Shown here piece by piece: positions 15,594 to 33,540 of a DNA stretch of 64,000 nt. The DNA is from an uncultured bacterium (GTDB taxonomy: Bacteria > Chloroflexota > UBA5177 > JANWHV01): assembly GCA_963729625.1 (NCBI GenBank), contig CAVSOU010000010.1, positions 768,001-832,000 on the forward strand, written 5' to 3'. The position numbers were made by a program, and so were the translations under genes. Below the pieces are notes generated by a model that searched no databases, was not told the DNA's origin, and saw only the letters and a program-made list of their open reading frames with translations. Position 1 is the stretch's first letter, and every line of letters starts with the position of its first letter.

Positions 15594-15622
15594 ATGATAG
15601 TTGACTAAGTTTTATTAGTCAA
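15594..15622 (-). promoter_or_regulatory. Sigma70-type promoter overlapped by a palindromic operator
   Basis: Minus strand TTGACT-17 nt-TATCAT; perfect-arm palindrome TTGACTAA-gtttta-TTAGTCAA at 15601-15622. Confidence 0.8.
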
Positions 15623-15766
15623 GCCTTCCAAGGTTCTAGAAGGTCGCAGCGTGCGCGTCCTATCCCGGTGTGACGGCCGCGGATGCTACAGGGCACGGAG
15701 AGCAGCCGCGTGCGCAGGAAGGAAGGGTTTCACCTGCCGGGCCGGCTTGGCCTTCGCGGCGCACCT

Positions 15767-17239
15767 TCAGTTGGGTCTGCGAGGGGGCGAGGCAGTGCGA
15801 GATGTCGATGCCACAGTGCGGGCCGCGACGAACATGGCCATGGCGCGCCGGCGTCGCTCGCCGTGATCGACTATTGGCGCCGGATACGTCTTGCCAAGGA
15901 CGAAGCCGAGACGCGCGGACTCGGCCGAGGGGAGCGTCCAGGGCGAGTGCACGTGCTCGTCCGGCAGGGCAGCCAGCTCGGGCACGTAGCGGCGCACGTA
16001 GGCGCCGCCCGGATCGTAGCGCCGTCCCTGCGTCACCGGGTTGAAGACGCGGAAGTACGGCTGCGCGTCCATGCCCACCGACGCGCTCCACTGCCAGCCT
16101 CCCACGTTGGCGGGCTTGTCGGCATCGATCAGATGTTGCCAGAAGTACGCTTCTCCCCAACGCCAATCGATCAGCAGATCTTTGCACAGGAAGCTTGCCG
16201 TGATCATGCGCACACGGTTGTGCATCCAGCCCTCGGCGTTGAGCTGGCGCATTCCCGCATCGACGATCGGATAGCCGGTCAGGCCGTGACACCAGGCAGC
16301 AAAGAGATCGCCGGAGTTCTCGTAGGGCATCGCGTCGTAGCGCCTCTCGAATGCCTGAGCAATCACCTCCGGAAAGTGGTACATCCAGGCGAAGTAGAAT
16401 TCGCGCCAGGCCAGCTCGCTCTCCCAGGCATCGGGTCCCTTCTGACGATCCTCCGGGGCGTCGTGCCGTGCGCGCTCCGCGGCGGCGAATGCCGCGCGTG
16501 GCGAGATTGTGCCGAAGCGCAGGTGAGCTGAGAGATGGCTGGTGCCGAGCTGAGCCGGCAGGTTGCGTGCCGTGGCGTAGGCGTGGATGGGAGCGTGCGG
16601 GGCACAGGTGAACTGTTCAAGCTGGCGCAATCCCTCGTCCTCGCCACCATGCTGGGTGCCGGCCGCGCGTGTCCAACCCAGCTCTTCCGCCGTCGGGATC
16701 GCATGGCCCTGGAGCGCGGGCGTAGAGAGCGGTCGTTCCAACGCGGCAAACGGCAACGCATGGGGCCGTGCCGACCAGGCCCGCCGGTAGGGCGTGTAGA
16801 CCCGGTAGGGCTGCCGGTCCTGCGTAAGCAGCTCATCGGGCTCCACGAGCACGAGATCCTTGAAATCGCGGTACAGGAAGCCGGCCGCCTCCACTGCACG
16901 GCGCACGCGCGCGTCGCGCCGCATACCGGGAGCAACGTAGTCGCGGTTGACGTAGACGCCTTCGGCGCCGCTCTCCCGCAGCGTGGCCAGGAGAACCTGT
17001 GCTGGGTCACCGCGACGTACCAGCAGATAACTGCCGTGGTGGCGCAGATTGGTATCGAGCACGCGCAGGCTGTCCAGCAGGAAGGTGATGCGTGGGCCGT
17101 TAGCGTGGGGCGCGGTGATCAGTGAGGGGTCGAGGATGAACAGCGGAATCACCCGCGCCGCATCACGCACCGCGTGGTACAGCGCCGCATGATCGCGCGT
17201 GCGGAGGTCGCGCCGGAACCAGCAGACGAGGGTGCGCAT
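15767..17239 (-). CDS. phrB: Deoxyribodipyrimidine photolyase
   Basis: WFRRDLR..DH, TSHLSAHLRFGTIS, ELAWREFY, TGYPIVDAGMRQL, WMHNRVRM, NVGGWQW. Confidence 0.95.
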   Translation of the reverse strand: MRTLVCWFRRDLRTRDHAALYHAVRDAARVIPLFILDPSLITAPHANGPRITFLLDSLRVLDTNLRHHGSYLLVRRGDPAQVLLATLRESGAEGVYVNRDYVAPGMRRDARVRRAVEAAGFLYRDFKDLVLVEPDELLTQDRQPYRVYTPYRRAWSARPHALPFAALERPLSTPALQGHAIPTAEELGWTRAAGTQHGGEDEGLRQLEQFTCAPHAPIHAYATARNLPAQLGTSHLSAHLRFGTISPRAAFAAAERARHDAPEDRQKGPDAWESELAWREFYFAWMYHFPEVIAQAFERRYDAMPYENSGDLFAAWCHGLTGYPIVDAGMRQLNAEGWMHNRVRMITASFLCKDLLIDWRWGEAYFWQHLIDADKPANVGGWQWSASVGMDAQPYFRVFNPVTQGRRYDPGGAYVRRYVPELAALPDEHVHSPWTLPSAESARLGFVLGKTYPAPIVDHGERRRRAMAMFVAARTVASTSRTASPPRRPN

Positions 17240-17244
17240 CGGCC

Positions 17245-18732
17245 CTATGGCTGTCCGAGTTCCAGGCGGATGCGCTGTGCTACGAGTCGAGCACCAATGA
17301 TCACCATCGGTACGCCGCCGCCCGGCACCGTTCCGGCACCCACGAAGTACAGGCGATCCAGGGCCCTGGCCTTGTTGTGGGGCCGCATGTAGCCGACCTG
17401 GAAGAAGTCATGCGCCAGGCCGAACGTGGCGCCGTGGCGCAGGTGATACGATTCGGCCCAGTCGGCCGGCGTGACCATCTTTTCCACCACGATGTGCTGC
17501 CGTATGTCCGGCGCCGCCAGCGACTCGACCTTGTCGAGCACCAGCTCCCGGTAGCGCGGCCCCTCAGTAGCCCAGTCCATGCCCTCGTAGATGCGCGGCA
17601 CGGGCACGAGGACATAGACACAGTCCGCACCAGCGGGCGCCATGGCCGGATCCGTGCGGGTGACGCAGTGCACGTAGAACGAAGGGTCCGAAGGCAGGCG
17701 ATGCTGTTTGAAGATTTCGACGAAGTTCCTGTCGCTGTCTTGGGCGAGGAACACATTGTGGTGGAACAGGTCGTCATAGACCTTGTCGACGCCGAGGTAG
17801 AGCATGAAAGCCGAACATCCGTAGCGCAGGCGATCCAGCCGCCCGCCCGCGTACGGCGCGCGGAACTGAGGTGGCAGCAGAGATCGGTAACTGTAGGGGA
17901 GGTCCGCGTTGCACACGACGACGTCTGCTGCCATCTCGGTGCCGTTCGTCAAGCGCACTCCGGCGGCGCGGCCATTTCGGACGATGATCTCCTCGGCCTC
18001 ACACGCAAGGCGGACTTCTCCGCCCAATTCCGTGAGAACCCGTACGAGCGCGCGCGGAATGCTGTACATACCGCCCATGGGGTACCAGATGCCGTCGTGG
18101 ATCTCGGTATAGGGCAGTAACGAGTAGATCGCCGGCGCGTCGGCCGGAGCCAGGCCAAGATACATAGTCTGGAAGGTGAAGGCGACACGTAGCCGCGGGT
18201 CCTTGAAGTACCGGGCGGCGAACTTGGCGAGCGACGTCAAGGCGTTGAGACGCAGCACATAGTAGAGGTTCAAAGGCGTGAAGAATTCCGCCCAACTGCG
18301 AAAGTTGCGATCGGTGAAGCGCTGCCGCGACACACGGTACTTGTATTCGGCGTCGGCGAGAAAGCGCCGATATTGGTCGCCTGCTCCTGGCTCGATGGCC
18401 TCGAGCTGGCGGCAGAGGGCCGCCTCATCACTCGACAGATCCAGGTGCGTGCCGTCGCCAAAGCGGATCCGGTAGTTGAAGGGCAGCCGGACCAGCTCCA
18501 GGTACTCGCGGATGTCCCTGCCGACCGACCTGAACAGCTCGCGCAATGTGTCCACCATCAGAAGAATCGAGGGACCTGTATCGAAGGTGAAGCCGGCCTC
18601 CGCGTAGGTGTTGCAGCGTCCGCCTGGTGCTGCATTCTTCTCCAGCACGGTGACGTCGTAACCCTGGTGCTGCAGTCGAACCGACGTTGCCAGGCCCCCG
18701 ATCCCAGCGCCAATCACAATCGCGCGTTTCAT
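17245..18732 (-). CDS. crtI: Phytoene desaturase
   Basis: IGAGIGG, GFTFDTGPS, WYPMGGM, YFVGAGTVPGGGVPMV. Confidence 0.92.
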   Translation of the reverse strand: MKRAIVIGAGIGGLATSVRLQHQGYDVTVLEKNAAPGGRCNTYAEAGFTFDTGPSILLMVDTLRELFRSVGRDIREYLELVRLPFNYRIRFGDGTHLDLSSDEAALCRQLEAIEPGAGDQYRRFLADAEYKYRVSRQRFTDRNFRSWAEFFTPLNLYYVLRLNALTSLAKFAARYFKDPRLRVAFTFQTMYLGLAPADAPAIYSLLPYTEIHDGIWYPMGGMYSIPRALVRVLTELGGEVRLACEAEEIIVRNGRAAGVRLTNGTEMAADVVVCNADLPYSYRSLLPPQFRAPYAGGRLDRLRYGCSAFMLYLGVDKVYDDLFHHNVFLAQDSDRNFVEIFKQHRLPSDPSFYVHCVTRTDPAMAPAGADCVYVLVPVPRIYEGMDWATEGPRYRELVLDKVESLAAPDIRQHIVVEKMVTPADWAESYHLRHGATFGLAHDFFQVGYMRPHNKARALDRLYFVGAGTVPGGGVPMVIIGARLVAQRIRLELGQP

Positions 18733-18783
18733 TGCCGTCCTGCCTCTTCTCCGGCAGATGCCGGAATCTCGCCAAACACGTGC

Positions 18784-19128
18784 TCAGCCAGGATCGTCGT
18801 TGCCCGCGTGCTGTCGCTTCAACACATAGTGCCGAAGGAGCAGTACGGTCTGCACGACCATCAGGTCGGTAAGCAGAAAGAAAACAGTCTCCTCGATCGG
18901 CACATCGGCAACCGCGAATCCGACGATGTGGTCGGCGTGCAGCACCCAAATGCCGGAATGAATCGCCACGCCGTCCGCGCACGAGAGATATACGGTCGGC
19001 AGGCTCGCGGCAACCGCAATCAGGCCCAGCCGCGGCAACAGCACCTGCCGGCCAACCAACCAGTGCCCGATTAGCACAGGCGCCGCCCAGCCCAGCTCGA
19101 AGATGAGATACGTTGCGTGACCAAACAC
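18784..19128 (-). CDS. Lycopene cyclase domain protein (heterodimeric CrtYc/Yd type)
   Basis: Small hydrophobic protein; ADGVAIHSGIW, VPIEETVFF (PxEE); beside crtI. Confidence 0.85.
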   Translation of the reverse strand: MFGHATYLIFELGWAAPVLIGHWLVGRQVLLPRLGLIAVAASLPTVYLSCADGVAIHSGIWVLHADHIVGFAVADVPIEETVFFLLTDLMVVQTVLLLRHYVLKRQHAGNDDPG

Positions 19129-19131
19129 AGG

Positions 19132-19446
19132 CTACCGCATCCTTGTAGTCTGCCGCTGCAGCAGCCAGATCGTGAAGAGGCCCGTGAGCACAACCTGCAG
19201 CACGTAGAACACGTACTCTTCTACCGGTACGACGCCCAAGACGACGCCGACGACATGGGCGGGATCGAACGACCACACGCCGTTCCGTATGAGCGCGTTA
19301 TCCCACGGCGCGGTGTAGGCCAGGGCCACCAGCGTCGTGAATGCCGCCGTGGGCCACGCCCAGCCCGGCACGCATCCGCGCAGTGCAACGAGCAGACCGC
19401 CAATGGGCAGAACAAGAAACAAGGCCAGGAAGGCGAAATAGCTCAT
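19132..19446 (-). CDS. Lycopene cyclase domain protein (heterodimeric CrtYc/Yd type)
   Basis: YTAPWDNALIRNGVW, VPVEEYVFY. Confidence 0.88.
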   Translation of the reverse strand: MSYFAFLALFLVLPIGGLLVALRGCVPGWAWPTAAFTTLVALAYTAPWDNALIRNGVWSFDPAHVVGVVLGVVPVEEYVFYVLQVVLTGLFTIWLLQRQTTRMR

Positions 19447-19527
19447 GCTCTGGGCTTCTATTCAAGAAATGACGTTGCGGCACGTCACCATCACCGTAAG
19501 CCGGCATCTCAGTATGCCCAAGCCAAT

Positions 19528-20268
19528 CTACCTCCCTGCGCGACGTATGGCTTTCAGCATGATGTGGTAGGAAACGCGGCCACAGCGAAGCCTATCCTCC
19601 GCGATGTAGGCCCCATAATACAGATAGGCCAGGCGATCGTACAGCGCCTGGCTGCGGAGCAGGCCCTTGCCGAGCGACAGCATCGCCAGGTTCAGCAACT
19701 CGACCAGGCCCAAGCCGGTGCGCTCGACGTGCTCCACGAGGAACTGCGGCGAGAGCAGGCGTCGCAGGTCGGCTTCGGCGTAGTGACGATGAAAGGGATA
19801 TCCTCCCTCAATCACCTCCTCTGGAGGATGGGATCCGCCGCCGGCAAGAAAATCCCACACATTCAGCGAATCCAGCCACTGCAAGACACCCTTGTGCGGG
19901 ACGCTGAGGACCAGCGTGCCGCCCGGGCGCAGCACCCTGGCGATCTCGGCGAGCACCGGTTGCTCGCGTCGCACGTGTTCCAGCACGTCGAGCAGGAGCA
20001 CGGCGTCGAAATACGCATCCGCAAACGGCAGGGATTCGGCAGAAGCAACCTGAAAGGGAATCTGCGGGTGACGGCGCCGCGCACGCTCAATGAAGGTGGC
20101 CGACGCGTCCACGCCATACACTTCGTGCCGGCGCGCGATCATGGCGGTGCCGTAGCCGAAGGCACAGCCGAGATCGAGCACGCGGCCACCCTCCGGCAAA
20201 AGCCGCAGAGCCCGCTGCCAGCGTGCCATGCGCCTAACCTCCTCCGCCTGCCACAGCGGTGTATGCAT
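19528..20268 (-). CDS. Class I SAM-dependent methyltransferase
   Basis: RVLDLGCAFG, LPFADAYFDAV, DVLEHV, RVLRPGG. Confidence 0.88.
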   Translation of the reverse strand: MHTPLWQAEEVRRMARWQRALRLLPEGGRVLDLGCAFGYGTAMIARRHEVYGVDASATFIERARRRHPQIPFQVASAESLPFADAYFDAVLLLDVLEHVRREQPVLAEIARVLRPGGTLVLSVPHKGVLQWLDSLNVWDFLAGGGSHPPEEVIEGGYPFHRHYAEADLRRLLSPQFLVEHVERTGLGLVELLNLAMLSLGKGLLRSQALYDRLAYLYYGAYIAEDRLRCGRVSYHIMLKAIRRAGR

Positions 20269-21168
20269 GCGCGGTCTCTGTCGCGTCTCCGACCGGTGCT
20301 CGGGCGAGCCTGCTTCAGGTGAGAAGTTCCGTCTTCGGTCGCGCGATCCCCTGATGCGCTCTCAAGCCCCGGCGCGTCGTACGCACCGCGAAGCCGCGGC
20401 GGCAGGAGCGCGGCGATCCGGCACATGGCACAAGACCTCGCCCACGCGTCAAGCGCCCCGCCGGCAGGCGCGGATAGGAGGTCAGGCGTCCACGGCGCGC
20501 CAAACCGCGCCTGCAGAGTCCCTCCGGCTTCCCACACGGCGGCCGGCACGACCGCGACGCCGGAGCGATGCAGCCGCAGGAGCAGCGCGCCGGTACCGGG
20601 GAGCGCTTCGCGCAGGCCGGCGGTGGTGCCCGCCGTTCCCTCGGGGAACAGCACGATCGGCTCACCCCGGCCACGGGGCGCCGGCAGGGCAAGCCGAAAG
20701 AGCTGCCGGAGCGCCGCGGCCCGGCCGGCGACCGCGCGCGGATCGGTGGGCAGCGAGACCATGCTCCAGATACGAGCGACACGTCCCAGCAGGAGTCCGG
20801 ACCCGGGTATCACTCGCCCGCGCACACGTATGTCACCAATCACGGCAAAGTGCACGCGGGCGTGATCCGGCCGGGCACGACGGATCTCTCGCGCCAGTAT
20901 GCCGCCGGCAAAGCCGATCCACAGGCCGCGCCGCTGGTAGTGGTTGGCGACGATCACCATGGCACCGGCCGGAGGAATATGCTCTCGGCTGTGGACAATG
21001 CGGCTGGCGCGGCCACGCGGCGAGCACGCGCTCGGCATCCTCCTCAACCGGCCTGCGGGCGCCGTCGAACAGACTGCGCGTCAAGTCCAGCCACAGCCAA
21101 GACGGGAGCGTGTACTGGCGCGTCCCTCCCAGGCGATAGCCGCGTCGAAGCGTCGGTGCGATGGCCAT
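20139..21168 (-). pseudogene. PlsC-superfamily acyltransferase (candidate carotenoid-glycoside acyltransferase), frameshift near 21003
   Basis: Overlapping ORFs 20833-21168 and 20139-21047; VIVANHY, IVLFPEGT, VVPAAV. Confidence 0.7.
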
Positions 21169-21210
21169 GTCAGCGAACCTTTACTGTCATCGTGCAACTG
21201 GCTCCAGCAA

Positions 21211-22353
21211 TCAGCGGTCGACTGAATAGACGCGGCCTTTCCACGGCGCGCCCCGCCGGGTCAGGGTCCGTGCGGCCGAATACAAAGCGATGGCCTGGAA
21301 CACCAACGCCGAGATAGGGTAGGTGAGCGCGCCAAGCCGGCCCGCCTGGAACTGGCGCTGCCAAAAGGCCAGGCCACGCGCCACGACGACATACAACGCC
21401 AGCACGCTCAGCCGGCGGATGCGTCCGCCGTGCCGCCAGGCGTGCCAGGCCAGCATGGGCAAGGCGGTATCGGCGATGACGCTCGCGGCAGTAATGGCGC
21501 CCCCGATGGGGTCTGCCGCCACGAAGCGGAAGGAGTTCTTCCCGAACCCGGCCCAGATGGCGCCAAAGCCATCGTACATGCGCACGCTTGCCAGTTCTTC
21601 CCCGCGGGCCAGGGGCAGGTTGAGGCCCGCGCGCCGGCACTGCTGTGCCAGCGCCACATCCTCGATCAGGCTGCCACGCACGCCCTCATGGCCCCCGCAG
21701 CGCGCGTAGCCCTTGACGCTCATGAGTATCCACTGGCCGTTCGCCCGCGGCGACGAGGGCCGCGCTCCGGCGAAGTAGCGAGCGTAGGCGTACGGCAGCA
21801 GCAGCCGCTCCCAGACGGTGAGGCAGCGCTGCTGCAAGAGCAGCGACAACCCGTCGAGCGAGTGGTCGATCACGTATCTGTAGCTGACACGCAATGCCTG
21901 CGGAGACAGCTCGGTGTCGGCGTCGAGAAACAGCAGCCAGGGCTGGGTCGCCGCGTCCGCGCCCAAATGGCAGGCGAAGGTCTTGCCGGTCCATCCAGAA
22001 GGCGGCCCCTGGCAGCGGATCACGGTCACCCCGGCCTTTTCGGCAATGGCGGCCGTCCCGTCCTCGGACTGGTCGTCGACGACGATGATCTGTGCTGCCT
22101 TCAGCGACTGCGCGGCAAGTGACGAGAGCAGCGTAGGCAGGTTGTGCGCTTCGTTACGCGCGGGGATGATCGCCGAGATGGGCGCCGGGCCGTCTCCGCC
22201 GGCGTCTCCTTGCGCCTCGCTACCGTGCACCATGGGCAGTCGCGCGTAGTTGTGTCGCGCCAAGTAGAAGGTCAGCATCTCCCAGGCGATGAAGCCTGGC
22301 AGAAGAAGCCGCTCCCAGTTGGCTACGAATCGAGCGTTGCTGCTGTTTCCCAT
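21211..22353 (-). CDS. GT2 glycosyltransferase, CrtQ/CruC-like (carotenoid glycosyltransferase candidate)
   Basis: IIPARNEA, VVDDQSEDGT, GWTGK, FLDAD, ANGQ, GGHE..R..LIED, VRMY, WKGRVY. Confidence 0.88.
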   Translation of the reverse strand: MGNSSNARFVANWERLLLPGFIAWEMLTFYLARHNYARLPMVHGSEAQGDAGGDGPAPISAIIPARNEAHNLPTLLSSLAAQSLKAAQIIVVDDQSEDGTAAIAEKAGVTVIRCQGPPSGWTGKTFACHLGADAATQPWLLFLDADTELSPQALRVSYRYVIDHSLDGLSLLLQQRCLTVWERLLLPYAYARYFAGARPSSPRANGQWILMSVKGYARCGGHEGVRGSLIEDVALAQQCRRAGLNLPLARGEELASVRMYDGFGAIWAGFGKNSFRFVAADPIGGAITAASVIADTALPMLAWHAWRHGGRIRRLSVLALYVVVARGLAFWQRQFQAGRLGALTYPISALVFQAIALYSAARTLTRRGAPWKGRVYSVDR

Positions 22354-22365
22354 CGTCAGTGAGCC

Positions 22366-23884
22366 TCAGACATCGACGATAATCCGGTGATATCCCGTCG
22401 CGCCGGCCGGGTAGATATCGCTCTCGTGCTCGGTCTGCGGCGCTCCCGTCCCGTCGAAGGCGCGCGCCTCCAGGGTCAGATGACCGTGCACCGGCAGGAT
22501 AACCCGCCATTGCACCCAGGTGAGCCGGGACAGCGCTGGCACCTGCAGGGCGGCATCGACCCAGGGACCGCTCCCCGTCCGCACCTGAACCCGTCGGATC
22601 CCGCGGCTGCCCGCGAAGGCCACGCCCGCGACAAGCGTGCCGCCGGCAGCCTGTCTCGCAATATCGATGCGCGCCGTCGTGTGCACCACGGCACTGTCGG
22701 TCCAACCCAATTCCTGCCAGCTGCCCTTGAATGCCTGGTCGACGAGTTCGATGTGTTCAACCCACTTGATGCCTTTGAACCCGTAGCTGCCGGGAATCAG
22801 CATGCGAGCGGGATAGCCATGCCGCCGGTCCAGGTACTGACCGTTCATGCCGTAGGCAATGAGCACCGCGGGATCGAGGGCCAGGTCAAGCGGGATGCTG
22901 TCCGCCAAACCGTCCGGCGCGCGCATGACGACCTTGGCGTCGGTTCTCAAGGGGCCGGCCGCCGCGAGCAGCGCGCGAAGCGGCACGCCGGTGAACAGGG
23001 CGCAGCTCATCAGCGAGCCGCCAACCGGATTGCTGACGCACTCTTGGGTGACGTAGTGCGACGTTGAGGGTAGAGCAAGGAGCGTGTCGAAGGTGTAGAC
23101 GTAGGGGCGTTTGACCAGGCCGTCGACGCGTAGGCTCCAGCTCACGTCGCTCAGATCGGGGTCGACGAGGTTCTTGCTCAGGTAGTAGAAGTTGTCGCTA
23201 GCCGTGACTTCCGGCGTGATGCCTGGGATCTCGAAGCCCTGTCGTCGCGGTCTTGGCGCGCTGAAACCAAACAATCTGCCGCCACGCATCAGCACGGTGC
23301 GCGACTTATACCAGGGTTCAACCAGAAGCAACGCGGTCAGGACCATGGCGGCGCGCACGATGCGCATGCTGTCGGAGATGAACGCTTGACGTGGCCGCTT
23401 CTGCCCTGCCCGCTCCGCGCGCGGACCGCGAGGTGCAGTGATATGGCGCCACCCCAGCACCACCGCGTACAGCCCTACCAGGATGGCGGGAGGCACGAGG
23501 ATCAAGGGGTGGAAACACGATAAAGAGAGCGATGCAGAGCAGGAACAGTGCCGCCAGGGGCAGTACAAAACCGGGCAGCCTCCCGCGTGGGCTGGCGGCG
23601 ACTGCTCCCGCCAGCCCGCCCAGCACGAGACAGACGGCAAACCCTCCCAGGAGCGCGAGCGGGCGCGCGGCAGGACCGAGATGCAGGATCAACTGCTGCG
23701 CAAGATCGACCGGAGTCGCCAGCATTACTTTCTCGGACACCGGTTCCAGCGCCCAGGTCCAATTGAACAACAGGCTCGGTATGCTGGCAAGCACCACGGC
23801 CAGCGCCATCGCCAGCATGCCGTTTCTGTAGCCTTCTAGCAGCTTCGTCGCCGTCCTATCTCTCGTGATCGATGCACCCACCAT
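22366..23884 (-). CDS. Membrane-anchored sulfite-oxidase-family molybdopterin oxidoreductase, frameshift near 23508
   Basis: TQECVSNPVGG (Mo-ligand Cys), AYGMNG, HGYPAR..PGSYGFKGIKW, TWVQW; the N-terminal TM part lies in another frame, joined at a CCCC run. Confidence 0.82.
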
Positions 23885-23947
23885 GCAGAGACGGTTCCCT
23901 CTTCGAAGGAATGCCTGTACAGGGCAACAAACTGCGCTCTCCACTGC

Positions 23948-24454
23948 CTACGTGTGCAGGGGAGTCGCCTCCAGGGACCGCACGACCTTGAGCGCTTCCT
24001 GAACGTGGTGCCGCACGCGCAACTGGGATGAGAACGAGTAGCGGACAACACCTGCACTGTCGATGACATAGGTGACCCTGCCGGGTAGAAGGCCAAATGC
24101 CGTCGTCGCACCATAGGCTTTGCGCACGCTGCCGTCGACATCCGACAGCAGCGTGAACGGCAGCCTGTGCTTGGCCGCGAACTGCTCATGCCGTGACGAG
24201 GCATCCGCGCTGATGCCGACGACCTCAGCGCCGGCTTCTCTGAAGTCCTCGTAGTTGTCGCGGAAGCTGCAGGCCTGGGCCGTACAGCCGGCTGAGTCGT
24301 CTTTTGGATAGAAGTACAGCACAATGGTACCGGAGCCGAGCATGTCGTGCAGGGAAACCGTCGCCCCATCGGCGGCGGGAAGAGTGAAGTCGGGTGCCAG
24401 ATCGCCGACTTCTACTGGGCCCGAATGTCGTGGATTCTCAGTCAATTCAGTCAT
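23948..24454 (-). CDS. bcp: Peroxiredoxin, BCP/PrxQ family
   Basis: VGDLAPDFTL, YFYPKDDSAGCTAQACSFRD, GRVTYVID; start codon uncertain. Confidence 0.92.
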   Translation of the reverse strand: MTELTENPRHSGPVEVGDLAPDFTLPAADGATVSLHDMLGSGTIVLYFYPKDDSAGCTAQACSFRDNYEDFREAGAEVVGISADASSRHEQFAAKHRLPFTLLSDVDGSVRKAYGATTAFGLLPGRVTYVIDSAGVVRYSFSSQLRVRHHVQEALKVVRSLEATPLHT

Positions 24455-24654
24455 CCTCTCGACAGATGGTACCCCATCACCCGCGCGGATCGGCGGGCTT
24501 TCAGGGTACGTCGTCGGAGGAGCACACAAGCGTCGCACCGGGAGCGCAATCGCCACAAGCGTTGGCACTCTGCCTGCCGGCTACCAGCCCAGCCGCCGCG
24601 TTGGTCGCACCGCCGACGACGTATCTACCATCACCATAGCTGAGTTTGTTGGAT

Positions 24655-24684
24655 TTGACTAATCTTTATTATTCAGTTTACACT
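24655..24684 (+). promoter_or_regulatory. carH promoter and operator
   Basis: TTGACT-18 nt-TACACT overlapped by TTGACTAA-tcttta-TTATTCAG. Confidence 0.75.
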
Positions 24685-24695
24685 GGATCGTAGAG

Positions 24696-25652
24696 ATGAG
24701 GCACGCGGCTCAGAGTGGGCCGCGAACGAAAGAGAAGATGCACAGCAAGCAAGACAGTCCTCAAGGCGGATCCAGCTTGTTCCCGATTGGGACGGTCGCG
24801 CGACTGACCGGGGTGCCGGAGATGACCTTGCGGAATTGGGAGAAGCGGTATGGCATGCCCAGTCCGGGCCGCGACGGCTCGGGCGGACGGCGTCTGTATA
24901 CCGGCGACGAGATCGCCCTGGTCCGCTATCTTGCCCAACGCGTGGCGAGTGGCACGTCGATCCGCAGGGCGGTTGCCGCGGCGGTGGATAACCAGCGAGA
25001 CCCCGATCGCCTTGTGCAGTCACTGCTCATGGCTGCACAGTCGTTGGATGCGGCAGGCGTGGAGCGGAGCCTCTCCGCGGCGACGGCGGCTCTCCCTCCT
25101 GCCGACGCCTGGTCCCGCGTTCTCGTACCAGCGCTGCGCGGGCTGGGCGATCGCTGGGAGGCGGGCGATGACGTGATCGCCGCGGAGCACCTTGCCAGCA
25201 GTGCCATCGCGGCGTGGCTACGGGCAGTGATCGCGGGCATCCCGGCCGGCACAGGACATCCGCGAGCAGCTGCGGCGTGCGGTCCCGACGAGCAGCACGA
25301 GCTGGGCACGATGGCCCTGGTGGCGCTGGCATCGACTCGCGGCACCCCGATGGTGTACCTGGGCGCCAACACGCCGCACAGTGCTCTGGAAGATGAGCGA
25401 CGGATCATGGGCCTGCGCGTCCTCTGCATCACGGCCACCCAGCCCGACACAGCCGATCGCGTGGTCGAGATCATCGAGAACCTGGCAAGGCAGCCGGCTG
25501 AGACAGCGCTGGCCTATGGTGGGCCAGGGTTCGCGCAACGCGAGGGCGCGCACGCGCGCCTGACAGGACTCGCCATCTATCTTGGCGTGACGATTGACGA
25601 CGCGGTCGGGCGCATCGAGCAGTTGTGTGCCCAGGCAGCGGGCGGCGCCTGA
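24696..25652 (+). CDS. carH: CarH/LitR-family adenosylcobalamin-dependent photoreceptor repressor (MerR HTH plus B12-binding domains)
   Basis: IGTVARLTGV..TLRNWEKRYG, GGRRLY; W-x9-EH (WEAGDDVIAAEH); EQHELG; YLGANTP; adjacent to crtB. Confidence 0.9.
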   Translation: MRHAAQSGPRTKEKMHSKQDSPQGGSSLFPIGTVARLTGVPEMTLRNWEKRYGMPSPGRDGSGGRRLYTGDEIALVRYLAQRVASGTSIRRAVAAAVDNQRDPDRLVQSLLMAAQSLDAAGVERSLSAATAALPPADAWSRVLVPALRGLGDRWEAGDDVIAAEHLASSAIAAWLRAVIAGIPAGTGHPRAAAACGPDEQHELGTMALVALASTRGTPMVYLGANTPHSALEDERRIMGLRVLCITATQPDTADRVVEIIENLARQPAETALAYGGPGFAQREGAHARLTGLAIYLGVTIDDAVGRIEQLCAQAAGGA

Positions 25653-25707: not shown

Positions 25708-26730
25708 ATGGATGGTCATGGCCACGACCGCGATGGCAGTGAGGGAGTCGGCGGCGAGATGAATGGATTCGGACGGAGCGATTCGATGCTGGAGCATGCC
25801 AACGCGCATTGCGCCCGTATCATCGCTGCGAAAGCCCGCAGCTTCTCGCTTGCCTCGCGCTTTCTCCCTGCCGGCAAACGGTGCGACGTGAACGCGCTCT
25901 ACGCCTTTTGCCGCACCGTCGACGACATCGCCGACGTGCCAGGAGACGGCGCATCGTTCGCTTCCATCCGGCTCCAGTTGGATGGCTGGCGAGCCTGGCT
26001 GCTCGCCGGGGCCCCATTTGAGGACGAACCGGTTCGCTACGCACTCGCACACGTCATACGAAAATGTTCGCTGCCACTATCGCCGCTGCTTGAGCTGCTT
26101 GACGGCCTGTCCGACGACGTCGAGCCCCGCCAGCTTCCCGATCTTGCCGCCCTTGACCGCTTCTGTTACCGCGTCGCCGGCACGGTGGGCATCGCCATGG
26201 CCGCGCTGCTGGGCGCCCAGGACGCGGCCGCCCTGGATCCGGCGCGAGATCTCGGCATGGCGATGCAGTTGACCAACATCGTGCGCGACGTCGGTGAGGA
26301 TCTGGCGCGGGGACGCATCTATATTCCCGCGGACGCCATGGCGCGGGCCGGCTATCGGCAAGTCGATCTCGAGCAAGGCATCGTCGACGCGCGTTTCGTG
26401 ACTCTGCTTCAGCCACTCATCCAGCGTGCGCGTGACTACTACCGCATGGGTTTGGCCGGGCTCCACTACCTGCCTCGCGACTGCCGGCTGCCCATCGCGA
26501 TTGCCGCGCAGGCCTATGCTGGGATTCTCATTAAGGTCGAGCACGCAGGCTTCGACGTGCTGACGCAGCGAGTGCACACGGGACGGCGCGAGAAGCTGCT
26601 GCTCGTGACGCGGGCCGGCCTCAAGCATCTTGCCACGCGAGGGTTTGCGCGCGGGCCGAACGAATGGCATGGGTTAGACAGCGAACGCCGTGAGCCGCCA
26701 GGAGAACCGACGTGGAAGATATCCCTGTAA
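25708..26730 (+). CDS. crtB: Phytoene synthase
   Basis: SFSLASRFLP, YAFCRTVDDIAD, CYRVAGTVG, MQLTNIVRDVGED..RGRIYIP; start may be 25758. Confidence 0.93.
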   Translation: MDGHGHDRDGSEGVGGEMNGFGRSDSMLEHANAHCARIIAAKARSFSLASRFLPAGKRCDVNALYAFCRTVDDIADVPGDGASFASIRLQLDGWRAWLLAGAPFEDEPVRYALAHVIRKCSLPLSPLLELLDGLSDDVEPRQLPDLAALDRFCYRVAGTVGIAMAALLGAQDAAALDPARDLGMAMQLTNIVRDVGEDLARGRIYIPADAMARAGYRQVDLEQGIVDARFVTLLQPLIQRARDYYRMGLAGLHYLPRDCRLPIAIAAQAYAGILIKVEHAGFDVLTQRVHTGRREKLLLVTRAGLKHLATRGFARGPNEWHGLDSERREPPGEPTWKISL

Positions 26731-26874
26731 TCCTTGTCAGCGGCGCCACGGGATATATCGGCGGCCGCCTCGTCCCTCGCTTGCTGGCGGACGGCCACAG
26801 CGTGCGCGTCCTCGTGCGCGACCACGATCGCTTGCAGGGCCGTGCCTGGCGCAGGCGGGTGGAGGTTGCCCAGG
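26701..26874 (+). pseudogene. Truncated 5' copy (RBS plus about 54 codons) of the SDR/DUF2867 gene at 37725
   Basis: Direct repeat of about 37714-37887; the last 130 nt differ at only about 2 positions; similarity stops at gttgcccagg. Confidence 0.92.
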
Positions 26875-27636: not shown

Positions 27637-27640
27637 GGGC

Positions 27641-28363: not shown

Positions 28364-28667
28364 GACCCTTCCCTTTCTAGGTTTCCTGCCAGGTTAACTC
28401 GTAGAAGGCAACGCCTTCGGGCGCCAGGCTCTTGCGGGAAGGTAAGGCTGCTTGTAGCCGATGCTGTCAGTCTTAACGCCTATACCGCGCTCGTCAATTC
28501 ACGCTGCCGCTAACACAGCGTGGAGGTTTGAAACTTGATCGACCAGGGTGTCTTGGGCAGAAACAGGTTGCACGTCAGGGTCGGATCTGCCATGCCGGCC
28601 TTGGTGTATACAAATGCAATAGTCAACAGGGCTACCGGGCGGACGTGAAGACACAGGGCGGGAGTCG

Positions 28668-29033
28668 TCAAGAAAGTGGAAGGAGTCGCAGGCGGCTGTG
28701 GCTGGGGTCAATAGTCAGTATGGCTCCGGCTTGCAGCTCCGGCTCCATTTGCTTGACGGCGGCGATAACGTGTGTGCCGATAGTGTCGGGGCTGACATCA
28801 TCGGCGCGAATCCGTATGACACTGGGCTTGTGATCGTGCGTGGCTGCCAGGATTGCGCTGAAGTCTAGATCGTGGGTCAGGACGATGTAGTCATGCTCGA
28901 TGGCAAACGCCATGATCTCGGCATCTGGCGCGTCATGCTTGCCCACTGACGCCCAATGGACTGCCGGTATTCCTTCACCGGCCAGTCGGCCGACCCAGCG
29001 CGGTGAAAGGTTCATGTCGACAAGCAGCTTCAT
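28668..29033 (-). CDS. DUF5615 PIN-like putative toxin
   Basis: MKLLVDMNLSP, APDAEI, VLTHDLDF; start overlaps the DUF433 stop. Confidence 0.85.
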   Translation of the reverse strand: MKLLVDMNLSPRWVGRLAGEGIPAVHWASVGKHDAPDAEIMAFAIEHDYIVLTHDLDFSAILAATHDHKPSVIRIRADDVSPDTIGTHVIAAVKQMEPELQAGAILTIDPSHSRLRLLPLS

Positions 29034-29260
29034 GCTTTGGCCAGCTGGATTTCGCGTTCTTCCGCGCGCCACGCAGCGTAGCGAAGCGCCTGCATAATGT
29101 CTTCGAGTTCAACGTATGGGTAGTCGGTCAGGATCTCCTCGATGCTATGGCCGGCACCGATTTGGCCAACAAGCATGCCGACCGTCACTCGCGTTCCCCG
29201 AATGCATGCTTTGCCCCCCATAACCTCAGGTCGTTGGGAAATGCGGTCGAATTGTGTCAT
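29030..29260 (-). CDS. DUF433 putative antitoxin
   Basis: RISQRPEVMGGKACIRGTRVTV, EEILTDYP. Confidence 0.9.
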   Translation of the reverse strand: MTQFDRISQRPEVMGGKACIRGTRVTVGMLVGQIGAGHSIEEILTDYPYVELEDIMQALRYAAWRAEEREIQLAKA

Positions 29261-29388
29261 GTAGCCCTCCTCAGACTTTCTGTCATGATGTTACCCAGAA
29301 GGCAGGCCATGCTGGTCCGTGCGCCCGACGCGATCACCGCGCCGGTGTCCAGATCTTCGTCGATGCGCAGGAGTCGTCGAAAGCCCGG

Positions 29389-29952
29389 TCAGTCTGCGGC
29401 TCTCAGAGCGGCAAGAGCGCCGCTCCAAGCGACCACCTGGTCGAGCATGGCGCTCAGCGAAGCTAGATGGTGGTCGCCCGGCTTGAAGCGCGTGTAGTGC
29501 TCAAAGTCGGCGTGCAGCGACAGGGCGACTTGGGAGCGAACATCGGCCATTTGCAGTTCCCCGGCGATGAGGCGCAGGTGTTCCACCGCCCGCGTGCCAC
29601 CAGCGCTGCCATAGCTGACGAAGCCCACAGCCTTGTTGTTCCATTCCTTATAAAGGAAGTCGATGGCGTTCTTGAGTGCGCCCGAGGTCGAATGGTTGTA
29701 CTCCGGTGTGACGAACACGAAGCCGTCGAAGCTTGCGATCTTGGCTGCCCAGGCAATGGTATGCGCCTTGGAGTACTGCCCGAGCGACGGGGGCATCGGT
29801 TCGTCGAGATGCGGCAAGTGGAAGTCGAGCAGATCGATGAGTTCGTAGTCGGCGTCAGCACGCTGCGATGCGATCGTGTAGACCCACCGTGCCACGGCCT
29901 CGCCATTGCGGCCCGGGCGCGTGCTACCGATGATAATGCCGATTCTGGTCAT
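29389..29952 (-). CDS. NADPH-dependent FMN reductase
   Basis: IIGSTRPGRNG, FVTPEYNHS, LKNAIDFL, FVSYG. Confidence 0.92.
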   Translation of the reverse strand: MTRIGIIIGSTRPGRNGEAVARWVYTIASQRADADYELIDLLDFHLPHLDEPMPPSLGQYSKAHTIAWAAKIASFDGFVFVTPEYNHSTSGALKNAIDFLYKEWNNKAVGFVSYGSAGGTRAVEHLRLIAGELQMADVRSQVALSLHADFEHYTRFKPGDHHLASLSAMLDQVVAWSGALAALRAAD

Positions 29953-30202
29953 TGCTGTACTCCTTTTTGTTACGGGTGTGTGCGTCTCGAAAATTCGGTG
30001 CTGTCTCAGTAGGGACGAGCGATGATGGGACTGGCGTGCTCTGTACTAGGTTGAGCAAGCAGGACGACGGGACCAGAATAACCGCAGCCCGGGGCCGGCG
30101 CGACCGCAGATCCCAGCCGGACTTGGCGTTGGGCGTGCAGGTCGTGCGCAGCTTGCCGGTGAGTCATTTCGTGCCCATGCGAGCGCTTGCCGATATCCCT
30201 GG

Positions 30203-31822
30203 TCATGCCTGCGCACCTTCCGGCCTGCGCGCCTCGAACGGCCGGGGCACGTTCGTCATGGCGGCGCCCGTCGCCAGACCGGACGTGCGGGTCGCGACCG
30301 GGGTCGCGCTTGCCCGGCCAGCCGGCGCCGTGCGACGACTATATGCGCCAGGCCAACCGGGGAGAAAACAGGCTAGGGCAGTGGCGACGATAGAGATGGC
30401 CAGCGCCGCGACGTAGGCATGCTCTAGGCCCGTGAGGTACTTCTGCTGGAATCGTCCGACTGCTGCGGCCGTGGCGCCGACCGACGGCTGACGGAGAGTG
30501 ACCGCCCCAGCGGCGATGGTGGCCAGCAGCGCTACGCCTATCGCCTGCATCGTTTGCTGGAAGGATCTGAGCAGCGGAGTCGCTCGTCTGATGCGAGTGA
30601 ACGGCACGTCGCTCAGTGCTGCAACCTGCGTGGTTTGGATCACCAGCGCTACGCCGATGCCGCGGAGTGCTGCCAAGACGGCGATGAGAGTCAGGCTCGT
30701 GGAGAGGGTGATGTGCGAGAGCTGATAGGTGTTGAAGACCAGGAGCAGGAATCCGACCAGGATCGGTAGGCGCGGCCCGACCCGGTCGGTAATCTTCCCC
30801 GCGAGAGGTGAGACAACCCCCGAGGTCAGGGCGAGGGGAAGCAGGAACAGGCCCGCTTCGAATGCCGTCCGACCGCGCAGGACCTGCAGGTACAGCGGGA
30901 GCAGGAACTCGGCGCCGAACAGGGCGACGCTACCCACCATGCCCACGACTCCGGCCACGGCAAAGCTGCGAATACCCAGGAGGCGCAAGTCGAGCAGCGG
31001 CTCGGGGGCCCGAAGCTCGGCCACGACGAGGGCGAGCAGCGCCGCCAAGCCCAGTCCCAGTCCTGCCAGCACGCGCCAGTCGCCCCAGCCCGCGCCGGGC
31101 TCCCCGGCCACCGAGGCGGCGAAGAGCAGGGCACCGAAACCAAGCGGCGCCAGCACGATGCCTGCAAGGTCGGCACGGGCCGCACGCGCCGGCTCCGCCC
31201 TCAGCAAGCGCCCGGCGATGCCGGCGCCCGCGAGGCCGATCGGCACGTTGATAAAGAATATCCAGGGCACCTGACCTTGGTCCACCAGCCAACCGCCGAG
31301 CAGCGGGCCACTCGCAGGGGCAAAGACCAGCACGATACCGAAAATGCCGAAGGCGAGGCCGCGCTGCTCCGGTGGGAAGGCCCCGAACAATAGGGCAGTG
31401 GCCAGTGGCAGCGCGATGCCGCCGCCGATTCCCTGCAATGCGCGCGCGGCGATCAGCAGGCCCAGATTCGGGGCCAGGCCGCAGAGCGCGGAGCCGAGCA
31501 CGAAGATGAGTAGACCGCCGATGTAGACCCGCTTGGCTCCAAGGCGGTCACCCAGGAATCCGGAGAGTGGGGTGGCGACTCCCAAGGCAAGCGTGTACAG
31601 ACTGATCACCCACTGGACGTCGCTGGTCGACGCCACGAACTTTTCCTGCAAGGCCCGTAGCGCCACATTGACCACCGTCGCGTCGAGGATCACCATGAAC
31701 AGACCCACCACGACCGAGGCCAAGACCTGCCATTTGTAACGATCGGCGCCGACCCCGCCTTCCCTGACGGCGGTCTTCCACGAACCTGGCGTGACCGGGC
31801 GCTCGCCGTGCGAGCTATCCAC
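30203..31822 (-). CDS. MFS transporter, DHA2 (EmrB/QacA) family
   Basis: LDATVVNVAL, GFLGDRLGAKR, ARALQGIGGG, GPLLGG, WIFFINVPIG, EPLLDLRL. Confidence 0.92.
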   Translation of the reverse strand: MDSSHGERPVTPGSWKTAVREGGVGADRYKWQVLASVVVGLFMVILDATVVNVALRALQEKFVASTSDVQWVISLYTLALGVATPLSGFLGDRLGAKRVYIGGLLIFVLGSALCGLAPNLGLLIAARALQGIGGGIALPLATALLFGAFPPEQRGLAFGIFGIVLVFAPASGPLLGGWLVDQGQVPWIFFINVPIGLAGAGIAGRLLRAEPARAARADLAGIVLAPLGFGALLFAASVAGEPGAGWGDWRVLAGLGLGLAALLALVVAELRAPEPLLDLRLLGIRSFAVAGVVGMVGSVALFGAEFLLPLYLQVLRGRTAFEAGLFLLPLALTSGVVSPLAGKITDRVGPRLPILVGFLLLVFNTYQLSHITLSTSLTLIAVLAALRGIGVALVIQTTQVAALSDVPFTRIRRATPLLRSFQQTMQAIGVALLATIAAGAVTLRQPSVGATAAAVGRFQQKYLTGLEHAYVAALAISIVATALACFLPGWPGAYSRRTAPAGRASATPVATRTSGLATGAAMTNVPRPFEARRPEGAQA

Positions 31823-32001
31823 TATTCCCCTCCAGCCCTCTGTTCCTGTGCCAAACCATGGACCTCGTGTTCCCGCGATACGGACTTCATCGCCGTAGCA
31901 ACGTGCCCTGACGTCGCTGCCGCTGCGTCCCGACGTAGAGTGCAGCCCTGCTAGACGTCTTCACCGAAGATGGAGCGTAGCGGCGGTGCCTGGTCCGCAC
32001 T

Positions 32002-32081
32002 ATGAATAATTTTTCTTAGTCAATTCCGCTCCGTATTCACTATACCCGAAGGCGCAGAGTTTGACTACGGTTATTAGTCAA
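32002..32081. promoter_or_regulatory. Two palindromic operator copies upstream of the MFS gene
   Basis: ATGAATAA-tttttc-TTAGTCAA (32002-32023) and TTGACTAC-ggtta-TTAGTCAA (32061-32081), flanking a minus-strand TATAGT. Confidence 0.7.
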
Positions 32082-32088
32082 ACAGCCA

Positions 32089-32560
32089 ATGTGGAGGTCG
32101 CGCTCCAGGCGGCTGCAGCGCGCGACGCGGCCGTCATCGCCGCACTGCACACCAGCAGCCGGTGTGGCACATATCGCGGCATCTTCTCCGATGTCTACCT
32201 GGACCATGAGATACTTACCGAGCGTCAGCGCTATTGGCGGCGCCAGCTTCAGGCAGAGCCGCGTGCACAGCAGAGCGTCCTGATGGCCACAGACGGCAGC
32301 ACGGGCGTCGGCTTCATCTGCGTCGTGCTAGACGCTGAGCCGTAACGGTGTCAATGCTCGACAATCTGCATATCCTGCCCTCCTACCAGGTTCGTGGGAT
32401 AGGACGGCAACTGCTCGACACAGGTCGTGCCTGGGTGCAACGCCGGGCGGCGTACGACCCCTAGCACCTGTGGGTGGTGGAGGACAACCGAGCTGCGCGG
32501 CGCGTCTAGGAGCATCTGGGTTACATACCGGCAGACCGCGCCATCCACCATGCCCCTGAC
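32089..32560 (+). pseudogene. GNAT acetyltransferase, disrupted
   Basis: DAAVIAALH..TYRGI..YW..VGFICV, stop at 32343, then LDNLHILPSYQVRGIGRQLL in another frame; ends approximate. Confidence 0.75.
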
Positions 32561-32846
32561 GGCACTGAGTTTTCGTCATGGCGCTACGTACAGCGGATCC
32601 AGGCGCCAGCGTCGAGTTGAGCATTCTGCTGTTTCAAGCTCCCAGCAAAAGCCCTGCACCCATCCCGTGCCACAGCGTGGCCGCCGGGTCGCCTGTCCCA
32701 CCACTGGAAGGACCGCGCGCGCAAGCGCTGGAGGCATCAGCGCATCTTCATGCGTGAGGCCGTGTGTTGCGCAGCGAGTTCGGCGCATATCCCGACGTCA
32801 GGTCCCGGTAATTACGACGTCGCACCCCATATCCAGCGGGCTATCG

Positions 32847-33200
32847 TTACTCCGTGCTACCAGCCACCTCGTCGAGAGATGCGGCAAGATAGACGATGCC
32901 AACGCCACCTCGACGATCGACTGCCTCAGGCGGAAGGAAGCGCGGCTCAGACTGATTGCGTACGGCGGCAGCCGCCTTGCGGATCGGGACGCCGCTGAGC
33001 ACGCGGTGCGCCAGCAGGCGCACGTGGTCAACATCCTCCACTCGGTACAGGCGCCGGTTTCCCCGTACGGTACGCCGCCGCAGCGGAATGCCGTACCGCT
33101 TCTCCCAGTTTCTCAGGGTGGTTGCCGGTACGCCCGTGAGGCGCGCAGCGGTGCTGATCGGGAACACGATGGACTGAGCAGGCCGACCTTCTTGCTCCAC
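32847..33200 (-). CDS. CarH paralogue retaining the MerR HTH but lacking the B12-binding region (possible pseudogene)
   Basis: FPISTAARLTGVPATTLRNWEKRYG..GNRRLY; tail GIVYLAASLDEVAG resembles the CarH C-terminus LAIYLGVTIDDAVG; start uncertain. Confidence 0.75.
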   Translation of the reverse strand: MEQEGRPAQSIVFPISTAARLTGVPATTLRNWEKRYGIPLRRRTVRGNRRLYRVEDVDHVRLLAHRVLSGVPIRKAAAAVRNQSEPRFLPPEAVDRRGGVGIVYLAASLDEVAGSTE

Positions 33201-33266
33201 GTGCCTTGCCCTCTGCTCAGCACACAGTCGCAGATCCTCAGGAGGCCTGCGCACACCGCCTACTCC

Positions 33267-33296
33267 AGTATGAGATGACTAATATAGATTATTCAA
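33267..33296 (-). promoter_or_regulatory. Promoter and operator of the CarH paralogue
   Basis: Minus strand TTGAAT-18 nt-CATACT; operator ATGACTAA-tataga-TTATTCAA; 26 of 33 nt match the carH promoter. Confidence 0.72.
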
Positions 33297-33460
33297 GCAT
33301 GGGTGGTGCGCCTGCCTGGTCCGTCTCGCGACCGCCATGCACGAGAAGTCTGCAAGGCGCCGCCGCCCATCCCCGCCGCCCACCCTCTGCCGTCGCCGGA
33401 TCACCGGCGGCGTGGTTCAGCGGTCGCCGAACGACGGACGCACCGGGCTGCAAACTGGAC

Positions 33461-33540
33461 TTGAAGAAGAAATCTAGTCAAAACGTACACCGTGTGGTAT
33501 GGTGGTAGCGAGGGCGCTTTGACTAGTAAAACTTAGTCAC
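33461..33540. promoter_or_regulatory. Operator copies upstream of the DUF4397 operon
   Basis: TTGACTAG-taaaac-TTAGTCAC (33519-33540) and a weaker TTGAAGAA-gaaat-CTAGTCAA (33461-33481). Confidence 0.7.

Follow-up and report, generated by a model that had tools for sequence, protein, structure and literature searches.

CarH serves as a model for B12 photoreceptors and has found wide use as an optogenetic part; to our knowledge, how it recognises DNA is understood for tandem direct repeats only. Here we describe a near-perfect 22-bp palindrome, TTGACTAA-N6-TTAGTCAA, that recurs around a gene for a class-I CarH/LitR-type repressor in a 64,000-nt stretch of an uncultured Chloroflexota bacterium (the window, G000:C10:768001-832000; G000 assembly of 5,411,702 bp, 63% GC, 21 contigs, 87% complete). 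We consider it likely that the palindrome is the operator of this CarH (24696-25652), which would act by occluding the -35 element in the dark and would be released by light.

Characterised CarH operators are composed of tandem 11-bp direct repeats of the form nnnnTnnACAn, the -35 element falling within one of them, with three repeats in Thermus thermophilus, four in Bacillus megaterium and DR/dr mixtures in myxobacteria (PMC9304148, available part). The locus studied here shares with these class-I systems (T. thermophilus 5C8D/5C8E, B. megaterium, myxobacteria) a regulator made up of a MerR-type winged helix-turn-helix (wHTH), a four-helix bundle with Wx9EH and a Rossmann B12 module with the lower-axial histidine, encoded beside crtB and crtI, as well as a site over the -35 element, photolyase and carotenoid targets, and an 11-bp half-site resembling nnnnTnnACAn. 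However, two 11-bp units form an inverted repeat here (sometimes 1 nt shorter) instead of three to five tandem direct repeats, and their core is TnnTCA (TnnACT on the other strand) rather than TnnACA, agreeing at three of the four specified positions. The recognition helix reads RNWEKRY, whereas that of characterised CarH proteins is given as RxWERRY (PMC9304148, in the same part), and the seven sites at six promoters include those of transporters and DUF4397 proteins. Three tandem TnnACA repeats had no match in the window at <=1 mismatch. No inverted-repeat operator for a class-I CarH/LitR protein was found in the literature searched, the coverage of which did not extend to subscription papers.

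The crt operator of CarA/CarH in Myxococcus xanthus was also first described as two inverted repeats, one over the -35 element, and is a single operator for paralogous repressors with the same recognition helix, of which CarA is B12-independent (available parts of PMC9304148 and PMC2926617). The window likewise encodes a second protein with the recognition helix of its CarH, consisting of a MerR-type DNA-binding domain (DBD) only and denoted here as mini-CarH. However, the inverted repeats of M. xanthus are, in the parts of these sources at hand, now held to be incidental to tandem direct repeats, and CarA has a full C-terminal oligomerisation domain, whereas mini-CarH has none. No CarS-like antirepressor was seen in our locus, no search having been aimed at one. 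For the class II LitR proteins of Pseudomonas (PplR1, PmlR2), the sites are TGTACA-N12-TGTACA and the regulon reaches far beyond carotenoids; in P. mendocina, Site 1 lies over the -35 element and Site 2 after the start site but ahead of the start codon (PMC9758184, available part). These symmetric-looking sites, and the Site 1/Site 2 layout predicted here for the MFS and DUF4397 promoters, are shared with our locus, whereas the class II proteins have no Rossmann B12 module and depend on a LOV partner for switching, and the CarH of the window has the Rossmann motif. At <=2 mismatches, TGTACA-N12-TGTACA had four matches in the window (18063, 18531, 46705 and 58906; 0.5 expected), of which the first two lie inside crtI and the last inside an open reading frame (ORF). 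None is at a palindrome site or near an examined promoter, and all four are probably compositional. The classical activators MerR, CueR and SoxR share the DNA-binding fold and a dyad site running from the -35 to just before the -10 element, but they remodel over-long 19-20-bp spacers. A site of that class was rejected here on the spacers of 17, 17 and 18 bp, an optimal length that fits simple repression.

At <=3 mismatches, TTGACTAANNNNNNTTAGTCAA matched the window five times, without mismatch at 15601 and with two mismatches each at 24655, 32002, 33275 and 33519, against 0.03 matches expected; five matches were reached in none of 100 shuffles. The same five sites were the sole matches at this threshold across the whole assembly. 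Copies one nucleotide shorter (N5) lie at 32061 (one mismatch) and 33461 (three mismatches), which were the sole N5 matches at <=3 mismatches genome-wide. Other spacer lengths between 0 and 15 gave one to seven matches each at three mismatches and, save one at N14, none at two or fewer. All seven copies (five N6 and two N5) are confined to 15601-33540, about 18 kb around carH, as the preliminary description had listed them, and the genome-wide motif scan that it proposed revealed no scattered copies: with a position weight matrix the sites scored 31.6-39.4 bits and the next-best locus 16.7 bits, a gap that is real even though the matrix was made from the sites and is circular for the five training sites. 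In an inverted-repeat search, the site at 15601 came out as perfect with arms of 8+8, and that at 32061 as perfect in the form GTTTGACTA-N7-TAGTCAAAC. The preliminary description had also placed the sites in AT-rich patches at the 5' ends of gene units. Both points are borne out, since the spacers are A/T-rich, GC content is 0.52-0.58 at the sites vs. about 0.65 in their surroundings, and all seven sites lie in promoter regions, in five intergenic regions each at the 5' side of a unit. Its claim that the 33519 and 15601 sites share 20 of 21 nt needs a corrected count, as 33519 agrees with the reverse complement of 15601 at 20 of 22. The flanks of the seven sites are unrelated to one another, which marks the palindrome as a short site and rules out a longer dispersed repeat or a miniature inverted-repeat transposable element.

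The search for CarH orthologues covered 41 relatives and 401 genomes of the phylum, among the latter all 21 of the class, and found one (77% identity) only in the congeneric genome G001. Searches of genome and metagenome contigs for related loci returned besides only CarH-like loci of 27-35% identity, and metagenomic members of the clade, 56-64% identical to CarH, are known as proteins. Among sequencing runs, no RNA run was listed for the locus, and contigs of four DNA runs compared at 80% likeness yielded just short, low-depth pieces that were uninformative about the operators. In G001 the strong sites number exactly two; each is a perfect palindrome at an orthologous position, in the upstream regions of orthologues where the preliminary description had advised looking. 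The counterpart of 24655 (G001:C19:59802) is directly upstream of carH, and that of 15601 (G001:C19:52786) is upstream of mmpL, in the interval that separates this gene from the end of the crt row. When the two intergenic regions were aligned pairwise, the palindrome formed a conserved island in diverged spacer DNA; the TACACTGG box after the palindrome and the GAGAAGATG start region of carH are further conserved islands of the carH/crt alignment. CarH is the sole regulator gene common to the G000 and G001 clusters.

These comparisons bear on the alternative that an unlinked regulator of another family, e.g., a CRP/FNR- or TetR-type dimer, binds the palindrome and that CarH acts elsewhere or via weaker repeats. 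Two-fold symmetry over about 22 bp is what symmetric dimers typically recognise and is atypical for the sites of characterised CarH, and in Thermus a CRP/FNR-family regulator is also involved in light induction. However, the two clusters have no further regulator gene in common, the confinement of all sites to one 18-kb block beside carH would be unusual for a regulator encoded elsewhere, the half-site resembles the CarH repeat, and the window holds no alternative canonical CarH operator at the threshold given above. We therefore regard an unlinked binder as very unlikely.

Promoter geometry was established partly by a consensus scan and partly by manual reading of nine aligned sites from G000 and G001, and the start sites, exact promoters and operons are given as predictions from sequence. 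The sigma70-like scan of 15000-34500 returned five promoter-like matches, three of which overlap a palindrome, in line with the three overlaps claimed earlier: TTGACT-17-TATCAT on the minus strand at 15601 (mmpL), TTGACT-18-TACACT on the plus strand at 24655-24684 (carH) and TAGTCA-17-TATAGT on the minus strand at 32067..32039 (MFS). In one layout, the distal arm TTGACT/TTGAAT serves as the -35 element and is followed by an 18-bp spacer with the rest of the palindrome and then by (T/C)A(C/T)ACTGG. It occurs at carH of both genomes and at the mini-CarH gene, whose minus-strand promoter (TTGAAT-18-CATACTGG) has the geometry and -10 context of the carH promoter. In the other layout, the proximal arm TAGTCA is the -35 element, followed after 17 bp by TAnnnT, as found at the crt row of both genomes (TAGTCA-17-TATGGT on the minus strand of the carH/crt site, -10 at 24633-24638), mmpL of G001, the MFS gene and the DUF4397 genes (TAGTCA-17-TATGGT, -10 at 33498-33503, below the scan threshold with 8/12 by hand count). 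TAGTCA-N17-TAnnnT is present at five of the six arm-proximal promoters, which include two orthologous pairs and hence amount to four independent promoters; the sixth, mmpL of G000, has AATGTT instead. At the carH/crt site, both divergent -35 boxes lie back to back on one arm, the palindrome covering the -35 and spacer of the carH promoter in G000 with the same autoregulatory placement in G001. The paired operators at the MFS gene (32061/32002) and the DUF4397 genes (33461/33519) are both spaced 58.5 bp centre to centre, the N5 site providing the -35 element and the N6 site lying just after the predicted start.

The carH promoter could alternatively contain a canonical operator whose three tandem 11-bp repeats all lie on one strand as TTGACT, TwwTTA and then TTTACA (G000) or CATACA (G001) over the -10 element, the palindromic look being secondary. 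By manual reading, T-nn-ACT, T-nn-TTA and (T/C)-nn-ACA do follow one another 11 bp apart on the plus strand of both carH promoters, placing the first repeat at the -35 element and the third at the -10 element, which matches the DR/dr plasticity described in the available part of PMC9304148. However, such an operator does not require the GTCAA of the second arm, yet the exact mirror image is kept in nine sites of two genomes, the other sites have no third repeat in register, and the N5 variants break the 11-bp register. We find this arrangement extremely improbable.

The proposed binder probably starts at M15 (24738). It matched the Pfam families MerR_1 (4.8e-10), MerR (3.8e-08) and B12-binding_2 (4.4e-09), and B12-binding at 22.8 bits, below the cut-off of 32.1. 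It aligned with T. thermophilus CarH (5c8d, E 8e-27) over the DBD, Wx9EH and ExHxxG; the former motif (W154-x9-E164-H165) is invariant in 12/12 sequences of the clade alignment A1, and so is the lower-axial histidine motif E199-x-H201-x-x-G204. The recognition helix RNWEKRY occurs in CarH, mini-CarH and 10 of the 11 A1 sequences covering the region (P0010 has no DBD), a set of 43-91% identity in which P0011 is the exception with RNWERRF. WERRY is found in T. thermophilus CarH and, by manual reading of translations, in the remaining 15 of the 17 CarH-like loci from related genomes. The clade with RNWEKRY is small and uncharacterised, and its changed helix together with the changed half-site would suggest co-variation. 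G000 also encodes a PduO-type adenosyltransferase and the B12-dependent MetH.

The best-supported conclusion is that the palindromes mark a local regulon that appears real and well delimited and would be wider than carotenogenesis; the identity of the binder, the symmetry of binding and the dependence on light and B12 are what we infer. CarH is favoured as the binder because the motif is exclusive to the carH neighbourhood, because G001, in which CarH is the sole shared regulator and mini-CarH, the second candidate, has no orthologue, keeps perfect palindromes at the two orthologous positions, because the sites overlap predicted -35 boxes, and because the recognition helix of the CarH clade is changed. 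The partial agreement of the half-site with the known CarH repeat, the autoregulatory placement at carH, the recurrent TAGTCA-N17-TAnnnT geometry and the second DUF4397 gene, which remains under a palindrome in both genomes, add to this, as do the CarH motifs, the encoded adenosyltransferase and MetH, and a photoprotective gene content like that of known LitR/CarH regulons. The exclusivity of the motif, its conservation in G001, the overlap with -35 boxes and the changed helix together support the earlier proposal of a CarH-type operator with inverted layout and variant half-site.

Several observations weigh against this assignment. All CarH operators characterised in the available part of PMC9304148 are tandem direct repeats with the DBDs bound in one orientation, so that an inverted repeat would demand a geometry of binding that has yet to be observed in class-I CarH. 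The CarH of the window scored 119.9 bits against the NCBIfam equivalog NF052513 (TransRegCarH), below the cut-off of 400. Comparative support comes from one other genome, and for the five sites in a block that is missing at this position of G001 the link to CarH has no cross-genome support. Finally, mini-CarH with the same recognition helix could bind too, although co-binding would be compatible with an operator of CarH.

If CarH is the binder, its oligomers loaded with adenosylcobalamin (AdoCbl) would occupy the palindrome in the dark, with one winged-helix domain per 11-bp half-site in two-fold symmetry, and would repress six promoters. The covered -35 element would be the TTGACT arm for carH-crtB and mini-CarH and the TAGTCA arm of the other strand for the crt/phr row, mmpL, MFS and DUF4397. 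Both members of a paired operator might be held by one tetramer (four DBDs on four half-sites) or by two cooperating dimers. In the light, photolysis of AdoCbl would dissociate the oligomer and switch on the whole 25-kb photoprotection block, the products of which would synthesise carotenoids (probably glycoside esters) and include photolyase, peroxiredoxin and a molybdoenzyme as well as two transporters and secreted DUF4397 proteins.

The block missing from G001 at this position was delimited by a NmrA/DUF2867 gene, which directly follows crtB in G001 and lies at 37539 in G000; the G000 segment of about 26.7-37.5 kb is therefore specific to G000 here. This block (26737-37500) adds about 10.8 kb of genes relative to G001, carries five of the seven operators and represents either an insertion in G000 or a deletion in G001. 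In it lies mini-CarH, which the preliminary description called a CarH paralogue, a label that has to be narrowed, since it is a DBD-only protein of 117-135 aa with no B12-binding domain, and the PF02607 (B12-binding_2) profile had no match there. Its longest ORF extends to 33254 (135 aa); we placed the start at 33200 because the alignment with the metagenomic clade member P0007 begins at VEQEG and the database entry has 117 aa. The gene has a coding-like GC pattern (0.75/0.52/0.70), and the encoded DBD shares 55% identity with the DBD of CarH and 62% with P0007. The tail faintly resembles the far C-terminal end of CarH proteins (E 0.19-0.24), as would fit a possible origin by internal deletion of the B12 domain. 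A B12 domain hidden downstream by a frameshift was rejected, the region having no PF02607 match and small minus-strand ORFs without family. Among 5.8 billion proteins, mini-CarH occurs only as itself (117 aa), with no relatives of similar length, and its best match in G001 is the DBD of CarH itself.

It could be argued that mini-CarH is the main binder of the five sites at 32.0-33.5 kb, with CarH acting only at carH/crt and mmpL; the block would then be a separate sub-regulon, light-independent or indirectly light-dependent. Five of the seven sites do lie within 1.6 kb around the mini-CarH gene, one of them over its own promoter, block and gene are both missing here in G001, where only the other two sites occur, the recognition helix is that of CarH, and isolated CarA DBDs bind operator DNA in vitro (PMC2926617, available part). 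However, a lone wHTH without a dimerisation module fits a strictly symmetric 22-bp site poorly, and the five block sites are inseparable by sequence from the two core sites. Furthermore, the lack of relatives of similar length marks mini-CarH as a young, lineage-specific derivative, and the motif is older than the gene, since G001 has the motif without mini-CarH. We consider such a division of the sites quite unlikely.

A more far-reaching scenario, which we hold to be rather unlikely as a whole, is that the RNWEKRY clade has moved from tandem repeats bound in one orientation to symmetric 22-bp recognition and, in the genome studied here, has spawned mini-CarH as an adaptation (incoherent feed-forward) loop. 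Mini-CarH, induced by light but itself light-blind, would re-occupy the half-sites under the same operator, and the MmpL and DUF4397 genes would form a light-induced route for the export and surface display of carotenoid glycolipids.

Table 1 Features of the predicted CarH regulon in the window.
Feature	Position	Strand	Sequence or evidence	Placement or remark
O-mmpL	15601..15622		perfect palindrome TTGACTAA-gtttta-TTAGTCAA	between phr 3' end and mmpL 5' end
O-carH/crt	24655..24676		2 mismatches	divergent bcp...phr / carH-crtB intergenic region
O2-MFS	32002..32023		N6, 2 mismatches	about +5 to +27, downstream of predicted MFS promoter (predicted position)
O1-MFS	32061..32081		N5, 1 mismatch	proximal arm is -35 TAGTCA of predicted MFS promoter
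O-miniCarH	33275..33296		2 mismatches	spans -35 and spacer of predicted promoter of DBD-only MerR gene
O1-DUF4397	33461..33481		N5, 3 mismatches	proximal arm is -35 TAGTCA of predicted promoter
O2-DUF4397	33519..33540		N6, 2 mismatches	about +10 to +31 from predicted start site
carH	24696..25652	+	class-I CarH/LitR-type AdoCbl photoreceptor repressor, 318 aa	proposed binder
mini-CarH	32847..33200	-	117-aa MerR wHTH and short tail; Pfam MerR_1 7.9e-12 only	
crtB (phytoene synthase)	25708..26730	+	Pfam SQS_PSY 5.8e-72	co-directional with carH; order kept in G001
bcp-to-phr gene row	15767..24568	-		starts from O-carH/crt
mmpL (RND-type lipid/hydrophobe exporter)	13313..15595	-	Pfam MMPL 7.4e-72	behind O-mmpL
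447-aa protein	11807-13150	-	no assigned family	possible distal member of mmpL unit
NicO	10619-11680	-		possible distal member of mmpL unit
MFS transporter	30203..31822	-	Pfam MFS_1 1.7e-47	behind paired operators 32061/32002
FMN reductase	29389-29952		Pfam FMN_red 8.9e-42	further downstream of MFS gene
DUF4397 gene 1	33764-35059	+	Pfam 2.1e-96; signal-peptide-like N-terminus	behind operators 33461/33519
DUF4397 gene 2	35115-35834	+	Pfam 1.3e-39	behind operators 33461/33519

The regulator family, its autoregulation and the carotenoid and photolyase targets are already known. What is new is the layout and half-site of the operator, the variant helix carried by a small clade, promoters with paired operators in a class-I system and a DBD-only derivative under the same operator. 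A natural CarH clade that combines a compact, near-perfect palindrome of 22 bp with a helix changed in one residue, from Arg to Lys, would offer a clean test of how the flexible DBDs of a tetramer can be re-arranged. If the pairing of CarH with the palindrome is true, it would offer an orthogonal operator/repressor pair, and it would provide the first physiological context (light and photo-oxidative stress) for DUF4397 proteins and the same context for an MmpL-type exporter in a poorly sampled bacterial class.

The row that starts from the carH/crt site is predicted to be a single operon. From 24568 down, it comprises genes for a bcp peroxiredoxin, a molybdopterin oxidoreductase (sulfite-oxidase/MsrP-like), a GT2 glycosyltransferase with weak CruG/HpnB likeness, an acyltransferase and a methyltransferase, followed down to 15767 by two lycopene-cyclase-domain genes, crtI and photolyase. 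The targets fit photoprotection, with carotenoid genes accompanied by glycosyl- and acyltransferases, photolyase, peroxiredoxin and molybdoenzyme, and the new members are the MmpL exporter, the MFS transporter and the secreted DUF4397 proteins; export or display of carotenoid glycolipids by the products of these new members is speculation. In G001, the order of the crt row is kept, but phr is absent and bcp is reduced. At G001:C19:52827-52883 (L025), a 19-aa remnant matches the missing photolyase, and bcp is down to a 53-aa match.

The mmpL orthologue of G001 is 90% identical and has the same operator; in G000 the true mmpL start is probably downstream of 15595. The intergenic gaps between mmpL, the 447-aa gene and NicO are 163 and 127 nt, and co-transcription of the latter two genes with mmpL is therefore only possible. 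The 447-aa gene also follows mmpL in G001, where NicO lies elsewhere. Accordingly, of the earlier claim that the regulon reaches well beyond carotenoids, a wider local regulon is supported, whereas metal uptake (NicO) is its weakest member; regulons of the LitR/CarH family beyond carotenoids have been described, with photolyase and many genes unrelated to carotenoids among the targets (PMC9758184, available part). The S51 label given earlier to the 447-aa gene was not upheld, as it had no Pfam S51 match, and its sole link to S51 is a 26% tblastn match between the window's S51 protein and the G001 orthologue of the 447-aa protein. On the side of the mmpL operator away from mmpL, a (T/A)TCCAAGGT box adjoins the palindrome and is kept in both genomes (window 15623-15640 and G001:C19:52808-52825). 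In G000 it belongs to a small hairpin-like repeat (CCTTC...GAAGG), and it may terminate the crt/phr row or provide a further contact for protein.

After crtB, the block contains a GT4 gene, S51 peptidase, DUF5615/PIN-like, FMN reductase, MFS, a 94-aa ORF, mini-CarH and the two DUF4397 genes. The second DUF4397 gene has a G001 orthologue (82%) inside the operator-controlled mmpL unit and is thus under a palindrome in both genomes despite rearrangement and different operons. G001 has no close MFS orthologue (best 43%) and none of the first DUF4397 gene. The DUF5615/PIN_10 gene of the block (28668-29072, minus strand) is possibly the toxin half of a toxin-antitoxin pair. The 94-aa ORF (32061-32345) has a coding-like GC pattern, and its opening TTG falls inside the 32061 operator. 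It looked GNAT-like by eye, an assignment that was dropped as no Pfam or NCBIfam family supported it. Beyond this ORF, about 500 bp of 32061-32846 contain no assignable gene.

In a further genome, G002, an intergenic TTGATGAA-N6-TTAATCAA with three mismatches lies 2.1 kb downstream of a carH2-like gene (G002:C13:7887-7908, L027); it may be a chance match, as controls give 2-8 such matches per genome. G000 itself has a second full-length CarH-like gene on contig 7 (C7:298648-299517, minus strand), 34% identical and with the canonical RAWERRY helix, which has orthologues in G001 and G002 (L016, L015, L003) and no TTGACTAA palindrome upstream or nearby. Just upstream of carH2-type genes of the same class (L004, L007, L008, L009, L014), cTGTACAAT or cTCTACAAT lies over the likely -10 element and recalls the TGTACA core of class II LitR sites.

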